Shown: positions 10,363 through 37,798, counted from the stretch's first letter. The stretch is DNA of 64,000 nucleotides from Escherichia coli (GCF_003018255.1 NZ_CP027440.1); one strand, 5' to 3'. The notes: generated by a model not told the origin, from the sequence alone. Made by a program: numbers and translations.

Positions 10363-12374
10363 TGAACGCATCGTCATGGTCCTTGCGCAATTTGCCCTGG
10401 TTCAGGGCCACGCTGGCGCAATGGCGTTATGCGTTACGCAATACCATTGCCATGTGTCTGGCGCTGACGGTTGCCTATTATTTAAATCTGGATGAACCCT
10501 ATTGGGCGATGACCTCGGCTGCCGTGGTTAGCTTTCCCACCGTTGGAGGTGTCATCAGCAAAAGCCTCGGACGCATCGCTGGCAGTTTGCTCGGAGCCAT
10601 TGCGGCACTGCTTCTTGCCGGACATACGCTCAATGAGCCGTGGTTTTTTCTTTTGAGCATGGCGGCGTGGCTTGGCTTTTGTACCTGGGCCTGTGCGCAC
10701 TTCACGAATAATGTCGCGTATGCATTTCAACTGGCGGGCTACACAGCTGCCATCATCGCCTTTCCGATGGTTAATATTACTGAGGCCAGCCAGCTGTGGG
10801 ATATCGCTCAGGCGCGCGTTTGCGAGGTGATTGTCGGTATTTTGTGCGGCGGCATGATGATGATGATCCTGCCGAGCAGTTCCGATGCTACAGCCCTTTT
10901 AACCGCATTGAAAAACATGCACGCCCGATTACTGGAACATGCCAGTTTACTCTGGCAGCCTGAAACAACCGATGCCATTCGTGCAGCACATGAGGGGGTG
11001 ATTGGACAGATACTGACCATGAATTTGCTCCGTATCCAGGCTTTCTGGAGCCACTATCGTTTTCGCCAGCAAAACGCACGCCTTAATGCGCTGCTCCACC
11101 AGCAATTACGTATGACCAGTGTCATCTCCAGCCTGCGACGTATGTTGCTCAACTGGCCCTCACCGCCATGTGCCACACGAGAAATTCTCGAACAGCTGCT
11201 GACGGCGCTCGCCAGTTCGCAAACAGATGTTTACACCGTCGCACGTATTATCGCCCCGCTACGCCCGACCAACGTCGCCGACTATCGGCACGTCGCCTTC
11301 TGGCAGCGACTACGTTATTTTTGCCGCCTTTATCTGCAAAGTAGTCAGGAATTACAACATCTGCAAAGCGGTGTGGATGATCATACCAGACTTCCACGGA
11401 CATCCGGCCTGGCTCGTCATACCGATAACGCCGAAGCTATGTGGAGCGGACTGCGTACATTTTGTACGTTGATGATGATTGGCGCATGGAGTATTGCTTC
11501 GCAATGGGATGCCGGTTCCAATGCATTAACGCTGGCAGCAATTAGCTGCGTACTCTACTCCGCCGTCGCAGCACCGTTTAAGTCGTTGTCACTGCTGATG
11601 CGCACGCTGGTGTTACTTTCGCTATTCAGCTTTGTGGTCAAATTTGGCCTGATGGTCCAGATTAGCGATCTGTGGCAATTTTTACTGTTTCTCTTTCCAC
11701 TGCTGGCGACGATGCAGCTTCTTAAATTGCAGATGCCCAAATTTGCCGCATTGTGGGGGCAACTGATTGTTTTTATGGGTTCGTTTATCGCTGTCACTAA
11801 TCCCCCGGTGTATGATTTTGCTGATTTTCTTAACGATAATCTGGCAAAAATCGTTGGCGTTGCGCTGGCGTGGTTAGCGTTCGCCATTTTGCGTCCAGGG
11901 TCGGATGCTCGTAAAAGCCGTCGTCATATTCGCGCGCTGCGCCGGGATTTTGTCGATCAACTTAGCCGCCATCCAACACTGAGTGAAAGCGAATTTGAAT
12001 CGCTCACTTATCATCACGTCAGTCAGTTGAGTAACAGCCAGGATGCGCTGGCTCGCCGTTGGTTATTACGCTGGGGTGTAGTGCTGCTGAACTGTTCTCA
12101 TGTTGTCTGGCAATTGCGCGACTGGGAATCGCGTTCCGATCCGTTATCGCGAGTACGGGATAACTGTATTTCACTGTTGCGGGGAGTGATGAGTGAGCGT
12201 GGCGTTCAGCAAAAATCACTGGCGGCCACACTTGAAGAATTACAGCGGATTTGCGACAGCCTTGCTCGTCATCATCAACCTGCCGCCCGAGAGCTGGCGG
12301 CAATTGTCTGGCGGCTGTACTGCTCGCTTTCGCAACTTGAGCAAGCACCGCCGCAAGGTACGCTGGCTTCTTAA
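10362..12374 (+). CDS. ydhK: FUSC-family (AaeB-like) efflux/inner membrane protein
   Basis: 670 aa multi-TM ORF; start overlaps the ydhJ stop by 1 nt, suggesting translational coupling. Confidence 0.88.
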
Positions 12375-12896
12375 TTACTTAATTACACCACAGGCATAGC
12401 GTTCACCGCCACCGCCCAGCGGTTTAGGTTGATCGGACATATTATCGCCGCCAACGTGGACCATCAGTGCTTTGTCTTTGACTTCATCCAGTGATTTCAG
12501 ACGAGGCGCGATGACGGCATCGGTAGCTTTGCCGTCATTATTGACGACCAGTGCAGGCAGATCGCCTAAATGCCCGGCACCTTCTGGCCCTTCATGTTTA
12601 CCGGTATTTTGTGGATCAAGATGCCCGCCTGCGGATTCTGCGGCGCTGGCTTTGCCATCTTTGGTGGCTGGCTGGCAGCTTCCTTTGGCATGAATATGGA
12701 AGCCATGTTCACCGGGAGGTAATGCTTTCAGATCGGGCGAAAACTCCAGACCTTTATCGGTTTCAGTAATGGTGACGCTACCAATTGACTGCCCAACCCC
12801 TTGCGACGTGACGAGGTTCATCTCGACTTTTTCACTGGCAGCTTGTGCGCCGGTCGCAACAACCAGCGCCAGAATGGCCAGACTAAAACGTTTCAT
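12375..12896 (-). CDS. sodC: periplasmic Cu,Zn superoxide dismutase
   Basis: ORF track 190 aa; internal start MKRFSLAILALVVATGAQA (signal peptide) gives 173 aa; His-rich copper-site motifs HGFHIHAKGSC and GGGGERYACGVIK. Confidence 0.92.
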   Translation of the reverse strand: MKRFSLAILALVVATGAQAASEKVEMNLVTSQGVGQSIGSVTITETDKGLEFSPDLKALPPGEHGFHIHAKGSCQPATKDGKASAAESAGGHLDPQNTGKHEGPEGAGHLGDLPALVVNNDGKATDAVIAPRLKSLDEVKDKALMVHVGGDNMSDQPKPLGGGGERYACGVIK

Positions 12897-26021: not shown

Positions 26022-26037
26022 AGGCAAACGTTTAGCT
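26022..26037 (+). promoter_or_regulatory. PurR operator (pur box) O1 in the purR leader
   Basis: AGGCAAACGTTTAGCT matches the pur-box core GCAAACGTTT; purR is autoregulated by two downstream operators. Confidence 0.7.
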
Positions 26038-26081
26038 TGCGATTTTGCAGGAGCTGAAGTTAGGGTCTGGAGTGAAATGGA

Positions 26082-27107
26082 ATGGCAACAATAAAAGATG
26101 TAGCGAAACGAGCAAACGTTTCCACTACAACTGTGTCACACGTGATCAACAAAACACGTTTCGTCGCTGAAGAAACGCGCAACGCCGTGTGGGCAGCGAT
26201 TAAAGAATTACACTACTCCCCTAGCGCGGTGGCGCGTAGCCTGAAGGTTAACCACACCAAGTCTATCGGTTTGCTGGCGACCAGCAGCGAAGCGGCCTAT
26301 TTTGCCGAGATCATTGAAGCGGTTGAAAAAAATTGCTTCCAGAAAGGTTACACCCTGATTCTGGGCAATGCGTGGAACAATCTTGAGAAACAGCGGGCTT
26401 ATCTGTCGATGATGGCGCAAAAACGCGTCGATGGTCTGCTGGTGATGTGTTCTGAGTACCCAGAGCCGTTGCTGGCGATGCTGGAAGAGTATCGCCATAT
26501 CCCAATGGTGGTGATGGACTGGGGTGAAGCAAAAGCTGACTTCACCGATGCGGTCATTGATAACGCATTCGAAGGCGGCTACATGGCCGGGCGTTATCTG
26601 ATTGAACGCGGTCATCGCGAAATCGGCGTTATCCCTGGCCCGCTGGAACGTAACACCGGCGCAGGCCGCCTTGCCGGTTTTATGAAGGCGATGGAAGAAG
26701 CGATGATCAAAGTGCCGGAAAGCTGGATTGTACAGGGTGACTTTGAACCTGAATCCGGTTATCGCGCCATGCAGCAAATACTGTCGCAACCGCATCGCCC
26801 TACTGCCGTCTTCTGTGGTGGCGATATCATGGCAATGGGCGCACTTTGTGCTGCTGATGAAATGGGTCTGCGCGTGCCGCAGGATGTTTCGCTGATCGGT
26901 TATGATAACGTGCGCAACGCCCGCTATTTTACGCCAGCGCTGACCACGATCCATCAGCCAAAAGATTCGCTGGGCGAAACGGCGTTCAACATGCTGTTGG
27001 ATCGTATCGTCAATAAACGCGAAGAACCGCAGTCCATTGAAGTGCATCCGCGCTTGATTGAACGCCGCTCCGTGGCTGACGGCCCGTTCCGCGACTATCG
27101 TCGTTAA
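26082..27107 (+). CDS. purR: purine repressor (LacI family)
   Basis: 341 aa [31 protein letters not shown]...; recognised as PurR. Confidence 0.95.
26110..26125 (+). promoter_or_regulatory. PurR operator (pur box) O2 inside the purR coding region
   Basis: GAGCAAACGTTTCCAC at codons 10-15 of purR; second pur-box match. Confidence 0.65.
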
Positions 27108-28036
27108 TCACCCGTTGCGGGAGTCTCTTCCGGCTCCCGCAGCCACTCCTTATTCAGCGTCTCACTATCGCCGAGATACTCAAGCAACCAGGTTAACGCA
27201 GGCGACATATCATTTTGCTGCCATGTCAGACAACATGCCGAATCCGGGAAGGGGTTTTCCAGTTCTAGTGCTACCCACTTCCCCTCATTAAGCCACGGTT
27301 TGGCGAAATGTGTTGGCACCATCCCTATGCATAATCCTGCCGAGATACAGGTTGCCGATGATTCCCAGTCAGGCACGACAAGTCTTTTTTGGTTATCCAG
27401 CAACCAGGTAATACGTTTAGGTAGCGTTCGCGAGGTGTCTTCGCGCACCAACGACGGCCAGTTGCGCAACGTATCATCGCTGAACGGGCCATCCATCAAC
27501 GCCAGCGGGTGGTGGCTGGCAACAACGCAACTCCAGCTTAGCATCCCCATATCGCGGAAGGCATAACGACCGCCTACCGGAATCGCGCGTGTTGCGCCAA
27601 TCGCCAGTTCCACGCGCCCGTCGGAAAGCGCATCCCAGACACCGTTGAACACTTCCTGAAAGACAAGAAGTTCGACATCATCAAAATGGCGATAAAAATC
27701 AACGATCATCTGCCGTGTACGTTCTGGCCTGACAATATTATCCACTGCGATAGCTAACTGACCGCGCCAGCCGTTCGCTATCTGCTGACATTGCTGCCGG
27801 GTGATCTGCATTTTTTTGACAACAGAGCGCCCTTCTTTGAGAAACCACGCCCCGGCAGCGGTCAGTTCCACATCACGGTGACGTCGTTCAAACAGCGGCA
27901 CCGCCAGCCACTCTTCCAGCTGACGCACGGTATAGCTGACCGCAGAAGGAACGCGATGCAACTCCTGTGCCGCAGCGCTAAAACTACCATTACGCGCTAC
28001 CGCATCAACAACTTCGAGTGAATATTCTGACCACAT
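27104..28036 (-). CDS. punR: LysR-family transcriptional regulator
   Basis: 310 aa ORF with N-terminal HTH ([41 protein letters not shown]); recognised as YdhB/PunR; divergent from punC. Confidence 0.88.
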
Positions 28037-36985: not shown

Positions 36986-37798
36986 TCAGCACTCAACAAA
37001 CTGATGCTGTTCATTAAGGCGATAGCGGACTCCGGCTCGAATATTGTTTTCACCTTCAATGGCGACGGCGAAGCGAACTCTTTCGCCGTCATGATATGCC
37101 AGTGCGGCGCTTCCCCCTGGCCCGAGAATAATTGAGTCGACCACGCCCGTGCTCACTATTGTTGAATCTTCACCGCTGGCAATGATGTGTACATTGTCGC
37201 CGCTGTTGGCAATTCTGGCGTTTGCGCCAAAGCTGGCGATTTGCACCAGGTCACCATTACTGGCGACATGACATCGTTCACCCAATGTACAAACGCGTAC
37301 TCGCATTCCGGTATTCGCAATCCGACTGCTATCTCCAGCGCTGCTTATCCGCGAAGAATTACCGGTTACAGCAACCCGTGCGCGTTCACCGGAGCTGCCA
37401 ATGTGACTGTTAAAGCCGACACTTCCAATCCGCACGCTATAACCCATACTGGCAATTTGCGCGGCATACCCAGCGGTTGCGATTCTGGCATTATCCTCAC
37501 AACAGCCGATGCGAGCATGATCGTCGCTGCGGGCAAACTGACTGCAAAATGCTCTCTCTCCGGGATCTGTGGCCAGTTTTTGCATAGAAGAAACTTCCTG
37601 ATGCGCGAAGTTTTCATCCGCCAGCCATTTTTTCCACGCATACTCAACCAGACTCTCCGCCCAGTCCGTATATCCTTCCTCAATCAGTGCATGATGAATA
37701 TCGGCATAACTACCGCCGCGTGGGAAATGGCGCAGAAACCAGCGATACATCACCGCTCCGATACGCCATTCTCGCAGGTCTGCTCGTGTAATGATCAT
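36986..37798 (-). CDS. ydhT: beta-solenoid-like nonapeptide-repeat protein, last gene of ydhYVWXUT
   Basis: 270 aa ORF; residues 93-227 form 15 consecutive 9-residue repeats (e.g. DNARIATAG, NSSRISSAG, DSSRIANTG, ANARIANSG); recognised as YdhT. Confidence 0.85.
   Translation of the reverse strand: MIITRADLREWRIGAVMYRWFLRHFPRGGSYADIHHALIEEGYTDWAESLVEYAWKKWLADENFAHQEVSSMQKLATDPGERAFCSQFARSDDHARIGCCEDNARIATAGYAAQIASMGYSVRIGSVGFNSHIGSSGERARVAVTGNSSRISSAGDSSRIANTGMRVRVCTLGERCHVASNGDLVQIASFGANARIANSGDNVHIIASGEDSTIVSTGVVDSIILGPGGSAALAYHDGERVRFAVAIEGENNIRAGVRYRLNEQHQFVEC

Follow-up and report, generated by a model that had tools for sequence, protein, structure and literature searches.

A conserved stem-loop at the overlapping stop codons of purR and punR in Escherichia coli, and the probable origin of the overlap

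The convergent genes purR and punR (ydhB) of Escherichia coli run into one another at their 3' ends, where the two stop codons, read from opposite strands, share the tetranucleotide TTAA and no intergenic DNA separates the coding sequences. This arrangement raises two questions: whether the overlap of 4 bp is itself a preserved feature of the locus, and what marks the 3' end of the purR mRNA when the coding sequence of the neighbouring gene takes up the DNA past its stop codon. Both were addressed in a 64,000-nt stretch of E. coli DNA (NZ_CP027440.1), referred to below as the window, and in the corresponding loci of other Enterobacteriaceae. The features of the junction are collected in Table 1.

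Table 1 Features at the purR/punR junction, in window coordinates
Feature	Position	Strand	Description and basis
purR CDS	26082..27107	+	LacI-family purine repressor, 341 aa, stop TAA 27105-27107; ORF list, RefSeq, Pfam
punR (ydhB) CDS	27104..28036	-	LysR-family activator of punC, 310 aa; ORF list, RefSeq, Pfam
punR stop	27104-27106	-	Complement of TTA; ORF list, RefSeq
TTAA overlap	27104..27107	.	4 bp common to the purR and punR CDSs, stops 1 nt out of step; direct sequence read
PunR C-terminal tail	27107..27127	-	Last 7 codons, ETPATGD; putative lineage-specific extension translating the hairpin loop and 5' arm; species comparison
Stem-loop	27114..27143	+	GC-rich, 12 pairs, no U tract, within punR codons 298-307; purR mRNA 3'-end element; folding, covariation
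purR mRNA 3' end	27145..27146	+	2-3 nt past the stem; Term-seq, MG1655 1738907/1738908, Adams et al. 2021 (PMC7815308)
C-rich, G-poor stretch	27146..27245	+	Candidate Rho-utilisation region, antisense to punR; C/G = 1.72

The overlap and the other convergent genes of the window

Direct reading of the sequence, the ORF list and RefSeq all bear out the 4-bp stop overlap and the gene identities proposed in a first-pass annotation of the window. The coordinates given there are exact, and the miscount that it had feared did not occur: the stretch from 27100 to 27109 reads g t c g T T A A t c. Pfam assigns LacI and Peripla_BP_3 domains to PurR, and HTH_1 (residues 7-62) and LysR_substrate (residues 88-290) domains to PunR. 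The same overlap is carried by the RefSeq entry of MG1655, with purR at 1737844..1738869 and punR at 1738866..1739798, and is annotated in strain 2017.09.02CC (99.9% identical). A 3.6-kb query taken round the junction found a match of at least 95% identity in 5424 of 5426 complete genomes. Among 5423 E. coli genomes, 5146 carry the 76-nt junction unchanged, and the remaining 277 show 95-99% identity. An annotation artefact was considered and ruled out, as the punR frame contains no earlier in-frame stop and the 310-aa form of the protein is found in 27 species.

Only four tetramers, TTAA, CTAA, TTAG and CTAG, allow two convergent stop codons to overlap; they were listed by Lillo and Krakauer 2007 (PMC2174442), who found 4 bp to be the modal overlap length overall and counted 58 convergent overlaps in E. 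coli. At the purR/punR junction, two real and annotated genes end in stops that are offset by one base and share TA. The TTAA overlap is an ordinary, already annotated member of this described class, and its occurrence is not beyond chance.

The first-pass annotation had further described the junction as the second such tail-to-tail arrangement in the window. Gaps between convergent pairs were taken from the annotation of the near-identical strain 2017.09.02CC, giving values of -4, 0, 5, 39, 40, 43, 46, 50, 63 and 145 bp for the 10 pairs of the window. The stops are no more than 5 bp apart in 3 of the 10, and purR/punR is the only annotated overlap among them. The stops of ydhK (+) and sodC (-) abut as TAATTA at 12372-12377, with a 0-bp gap, which constitutes an abutment and not an overlap; this is probably the pair that had been counted as the first. 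Between ydhS (+, TAA 36978-36980) and ydhT (-, complement of TCA 36986-36988), 5 bp lie between the stops. Other tight tail-to-tail pairs thus exist, as the description implied, but it is inexact, because neither of these two pairs overlaps.

Linear coordinates in the window are shifted by about 910 bp relative to NZ_AP025214.2 (2017.09.02CC) at the ydhK/sodC junction, so that an insertion or deletion must separate the two sequences somewhere from about 12.4 kb to 25.8 kb. The lhr-like helicase gene is annotated as frameshifted in strain 2017.09.02CC.

A conserved stem-loop and the purR 3' end

The absence of any terminator space, which the first-pass annotation had read from the overlap, holds for intergenic DNA only, because the element that marks the purR 3' end lies inside punR. 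This element is the stem-loop GUUGCGGGAGUC-UCUUCC-GGCUCCCGCAGC, which begins 7 nt past the purR stop and lies wholly within the last 13 punR codons (298-310). Its folding energy on the plus strand is -23.2 kcal/mol (z -5.7 against shuffles), and the minus-strand hairpin of E. coli is weaker (-17.1, z -1.8). The stem includes a perfect 8-nt inverted repeat, TGCGGGAG/CTCCCGCA, and is followed by CACUCCUU. A pyrimidine-rich run, CACUCCUUAUUC, lies directly 3' of the stem in E. coli, although it does not amount to a U tract: 3 of the first 8 nt are U, and the compared species average 2.7 U over the 8 nt past the stem, where many of them carry CACUCCCGGU.

Known element types were compared with the hairpin. 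A consensus promoter and terminator scan returned chance-level matches only, none of them at the hairpin, and an Rfam scan of 26800-27500 gave no match. A covariance model of the hairpin, searched against the 64-kb window, matched solely at 27105-27154, which argues against a repeated REP-type element; together with the absence of an Rfam match, this single hit ruled out a REP or other repeated palindrome as the identity of the hairpin.

Conservation of the stem-loop was assessed across the window sequence and 77 species loci. The hairpin folds in all 78 sequences, with energies from -15.7 to -27.7 kcal/mol and a start at a median of 7 nt past the purR stop. RNAalifold applied to a plain MAFFT alignment found no consensus hairpin, because loop and spacer lengths differ and the 5' arms fall out of register; this problem was solved by folding each sequence separately and realigning with a covariance model. 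In the realignment, which is fitted to the structure and so favours it, 7 of the 12 stem pairs show compensatory double changes. Double-change cells number 48, where shuffles give 14.3±4.2 and none of 500 reaches the observed count; the covariation score is 0.231 against 0.132 in shuffles, again unmatched by any of the 500, and at most 0.085 in slid controls. A check independent of the structure-fitted alignment was provided by chimeras in which the 5' and 3' halves come from different species. These fold at -15.6 kcal/mol compared with -21.1 for native sequences, an average loss of about 5.5, whereas chimeras sharing identical 3' arms hold -21.8 kcal/mol. The conserved functional element at the purR/punR junction is the stem-loop, not the overlap.

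A systematically stronger hairpin on the purR-sense strand, the pattern seen in E. coli, was rejected in the comparison across 78 species (-20.8 versus -20.6 kcal/mol, Wilcoxon p = 0.75). Because the two strands are equally stable across species, the hairpin may also serve punR or act bidirectionally.

The Term-seq study of Adams et al. 2021 (PMC7815308, supplementary file 1) reports a "primary" purR 3' end, antisense to ydhB, at 1738907 (+) in the sheet for LB at OD 0.4 and at 1738908 in the sheet for a second condition. Its conversion from MG1655 to window coordinates was confirmed by the flanking sequence, with the stem ending at 27143. According to Dar and Sorek 2018 (PMC6061677), Rho-dependent transcripts end diffusely downstream and are trimmed by PNPase or RNase II to a protective stem-loop, which sometimes lies inside the next gene. 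At purR, a precise 3' end directly follows a stem that has no U tract, and C exceeds G just downstream; the stretch listed in Table 1 has a C/G ratio that reaches or exceeds the 95th percentile (1.69) for 100-nt segments taken across the whole 64 kb. The combination of a 3' end abutting the stem, the missing U tract and the C-rich downstream region, as in the cases of Dar and Sorek, favours Rho termination followed by trimming, which is most likely how the purR 3' end is formed. Transcription of purR would continue along the C-rich strand antisense to punR until Rho stops it there, and the transcript would then be trimmed 3' to 5' back to the protective stem-loop. Inefficient termination on the spot, driven by the hairpin, is a weaker alternative.

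On the opposite strand, punR would have no separate 3' region of its own. In E. coli, punR reaches its stop 7 nt past the foot of the hairpin, and the first 200 nt downstream of this stop are not C-rich on the punR sense strand (C/G 0.85). No punR 3' end is listed in the Term-seq tables of Adams et al. 2021. The p19 dsRNA tables hold per-gene counts for purR and ydhB in unlabelled columns.

Two further plus-strand 3' ends reported by Adams et al. 2021 fall near the beginning of purR, at window position 26071 (MG1655 1737833, "orphan"), 11 nt upstream of the start codon, and at 26190 (1737952, "internal"), 108 nt inside the gene. A PUR-box-like palindrome, GCAAACGTTTAC, is located at about 26024-26035, upstream of the 3' end at 26071. 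Autoregulation of purR uses two operators downstream of its promoter, and the 3' ends at 26071 and 26190 may be linked to it.

Turnover of the punR stop codon in Enterobacteriaceae

A PunR scan with one genome per species yielded 80 Enterobacteriaceae loci, 78 of which have purR as the convergent neighbour; in the other two (L053 and L076) the sequence ends just past punR, and these were left out. Over the 78 species loci with both genes, orthologue identity is 84-98% for PunR and 91-100% for PurR. Family-wide conservation of the overlap, a check that the first-pass annotation had suggested, does not hold, as the overlap was found in only 27 of the 78 species, comprising Escherichia, Salmonella arizonae, most Citrobacter, Trabulsiella, Pluralibacter gergoviae, Silvania, Leclercia, Pseudocitrobacter and Intestinirhabdus. 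All 27 encode a 310-aa PunR in one frame, with the punR stop being TAA where purR ends in CGT-TAA and TAG where it ends in CGC-TAA.

The largest class, with 45 species (Klebsiella, Raoultella, Enterobacter, Lelliottia, Kosakonia, Kluyvera, Phytobacter and some Citrobacter), has a gap of 14-22 nt between the stops and a PunR of 303 aa; the punR stop is located fully within the hairpin loop in 33 of them and across the loop/stem edge in 12. Gaps of 1-5 nt, with PunR proteins of 307-309 aa, occur in 5 species (Superficieibacter, Kluyvera georgiana, one Citrobacter and others), and a single species, Enterobacter sp. kpr-6, has a gap of 45 nt produced by an insertion, with a PunR of 303 aa. A spacer between the orthologous genes, accompanied by independent terminators, had been named in the first-pass annotation as evidence that would count against its reading. 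Spacers do occur, in these 45 species and 6 others, but those of 14-22 nt leave no room for two terminators, because they are the 5' arm of the same hairpin. Judged from the compared loci, the 4-bp overlap is not specially conserved.

Individual loci depart from these patterns. The insertion in Enterobacter sp. kpr-6 (L036:3893-3972) lies right past the purR stop and carries a GC-rich palindrome of its own, GCCTGC...GCAGGC, beside the usual hairpin. In Superficieibacter and relatives (L067, L069 and L077), punR reads through the hairpin in another frame and stops at TTA or TCA 1 nt past the purR stop (TAAgTTA or TAAgTCA), a near miss of the overlap.

The proteins mirror the position of the stop. 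The PunR core ends in ...GDSETLN(K/R)EWLREP(E/D/A) in all species, and the end of the core is the last residue, 303, in 46 of them. The 7-residue tail found in the longer form is hypervariable between genera (ETPATGD, EAPAQQA, EVPAGEA, TPAPGRD, ASAPQRH, ASVRKEA), as would be expected of a mere translation of the loop and the 5' arm that covaries. The LysR_substrate match in Pfam stops before the tail, at residue 290.

To follow the stop through the family, its position was coded in three state classes and mapped by Fitch parsimony onto a midpoint-rooted neighbour-joining tree of the two genes, which covered Enterobacteriaceae and from which Leclercia (overlap) was left out. At least 10 changes among the three classes were obtained. 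One large overlap clade comprises Escherichia, Salmonella, Citrobacter and Intestinirhabdus, with a reversion to the loop stop in the C. gillenii group, and separate origins of the overlap are placed in Trabulsiella, Silvania, Pluralibacter and Pseudocitrobacter. Loop stops are distributed among Klebsiella, Raoultella, Kluyvera, Kosakonia, Enterobacter and Lelliottia, and the Fitch root set is ambiguous between the loop stop and the "other gaps" state. The data moderately, though not firmly, favour the loop stop as ancestral and the overlap as derived: the loop stop is taken as ancestral because it is spread over most other genera, and the polarity is only moderately supported because the tree is rooted at its midpoint and not by an outgroup from beyond the Enterobacteriaceae.

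The overlap most likely arose by loss of the punR stop within the loop, which would have left PunR 7 residues longer. The proposed course begins from the condition of most Enterobacteriaceae, in which the punR stop sits in the loop of the hairpin and ends a protein of 303 aa. The lineage of Escherichia, Salmonella and Citrobacter would have lost this in-loop stop, as would several other genera on separate occasions, after which translation would run 7 codons through the 5' arm to the next in-frame stop. That stop would be supplied by the complement of the last-codon pyrimidine of purR together with TA, so that CGT-TAA gives TTA, read as TAA, and CGC-TAA gives CTA, read as TAG. The complement of the purR stop would thereby act as an unavoidable backstop once the loop stop is gone. 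Turnover of the punR stop against such a fixed backstop would make the TTAA overlap a near-neutral by-product and not a selected feature. As a whole explanation, we consider it likely that the shared hairpin serves as the purR 3'-end element through Rho termination and trimming, and that the overlap is a neutral by-product of stop-codon turnover.

Alternative readings and comparison with known systems

Several features of the hairpin would also suit a bidirectional terminator of the collision type, at which converging RNA polymerases pause and collide and both 3' ends are fixed without Rho or a U tract. It sits precisely where two convergent genes meet, folds with equal stability on either strand across the 78 species and is unlike both canonical intrinsic terminators and REPs, and the purR 3' end is sharp and adjoins the stem. 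The collision model (Ju et al. 2019; Wang et al. 2022) needs a stem-loop in the nascent RNA, and termination is more efficient for highly expressed pairs (bioRxiv 10.1101/2022.10.23.513370), whereas purR and punR, judging from the functions of the genes, are probably weakly expressed. Moreover, the purR end alone is documented, with no punR counterpart in the Term-seq tables, and the hairpin is weaker on the minus strand in E. coli; a collision-type terminator is accordingly regarded as unlikely. A weak, non-canonical intrinsic terminator of purR inside the punR coding sequence, operating independently of Rho, is quite improbable, given that the U tract is missing in E. coli and in the many species with CACUCCCGGU, that the mapped end lies just past the stem and not 7-9 nt into a U run, that the consensus terminator scan does not call the hairpin, and that the TERMITe terminator supplements list nothing for purR. 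The stable GC-rich stem of terminator-like size and the pyrimidine-rich run behind it in E. coli are nevertheless compatible with such a terminator, predicted Rho-independent terminators lie in the partner gene for 19 of the 58 E. coli convergent overlaps (Lillo and Krakauer, PMC2174442), and low-U hairpins may be inefficient intrinsic terminators with Rho as a backup (Dar and Sorek, PMC6061677).

The remaining alternative concerns the overlap itself, which could be selected, for example, through genome compaction or through antisense or excludon-type coupling of the two purine regulators. The two genes are adjacent in 78 of 80 loci, the exceptions being the truncated ones; their adjacency was noted by Rodionova et al. 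2021 (PMC8376909), and both act in purine homeostasis. The junction is also nearly invariant within E. coli, but this invariance is no greater than species-level identity. Overlapping 3' ends are produced by 75% of convergent operons (Conway et al. 2014); the transcripts would overlap whether the coding sequences overlap by 4 bp or lie 17 bp apart, and any antisense effect is therefore independent of TTAA. With the overlap confined to about a third of the species, gained or lost at least 10 times and accompanied by hypervariable PunR residues, selection for the overlap itself appears extremely improbable.

The overlap carries little weight as a discovery, since the reference annotation already shows it and its class is a textbook one. 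Rodionova et al. 2021 (PMC8376909) pointed out the purR-punR-punC synteny but did not discuss the overlap. The new details are small, namely that the 3' end of purR is marked by a covarying hairpin, conserved in the family and lacking a U tract, and that the punR stop has repeatedly changed places between the loop of this hairpin and the complement of the purR stop, and none of them is surprising to a specialist. A more consequential possibility, which we hold to be very unlikely, is that the hairpin is a selected two-way 3'-end element for two purine regulators in which the position of the punR stop matters, a trimmed punR mRNA being non-stop, or that convergent read-through couples the genes in antisense. 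If the punR mRNA were trimmed to the hairpin in E. coli, its stop codon would be lost, resulting in a non-stop message and tmRNA rescue, and PunR output would be lower than in species with the stop in the loop.

The value of the locus is modest, as a clean illustration that stop-codon turnover can leave two tail-to-tail genes overlapping by 4 bp as a neutral side effect, and that selection at such a junction can act on a shared stem-loop which lacks a U tract, lies within coding sequence and sets the 3' end of an mRNA. The lesson for annotation is that absent intergenic space does not imply an absent 3'-end signal.

The canonical intrinsic terminator shares with the purR hairpin a stable GC-rich stem-loop close to the stop codon; the purR hairpin differs in having no 7-8 nt U tract with a 3' end inside it, its end lying immediately past the stem. 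The bidirectional terminators of Ju et al. 2019 and 10.1101/2022.10.23.513370 likewise consist of one stem-loop between convergent genes that differs from the classical intrinsic terminator, whereas at purR/punR the documented 3' end is that of purR alone and expression of the two genes is probably weak. With the protective stem-loops of Dar and Sorek (PMC6061677), purR shares a terminator-like energy, the lack of a U tract, a 3' end right after the stem, an excess of C over G downstream and a location in the coding region of a neighbour; for purR, dependence on Rho and exonucleases is presumed from these features, and the stop region of a convergent gene takes in the same hairpin.

The overlap itself shows no essential difference from the 4-nt convergent stop-stop overlaps of PMC2174442, having the same stops offset by 1 nt and sharing TA, with TTAA as the tetramer, or CTAA where purR ends in CGC. 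Convergent overlaps are generally ascribed to 3' extension following loss of a stop codon (cited in PMC2716372), and the purR/punR data fit this origin; here, the putative lost stop can be located, in the loop of the hairpin, and its turnover can be traced over 78 species.
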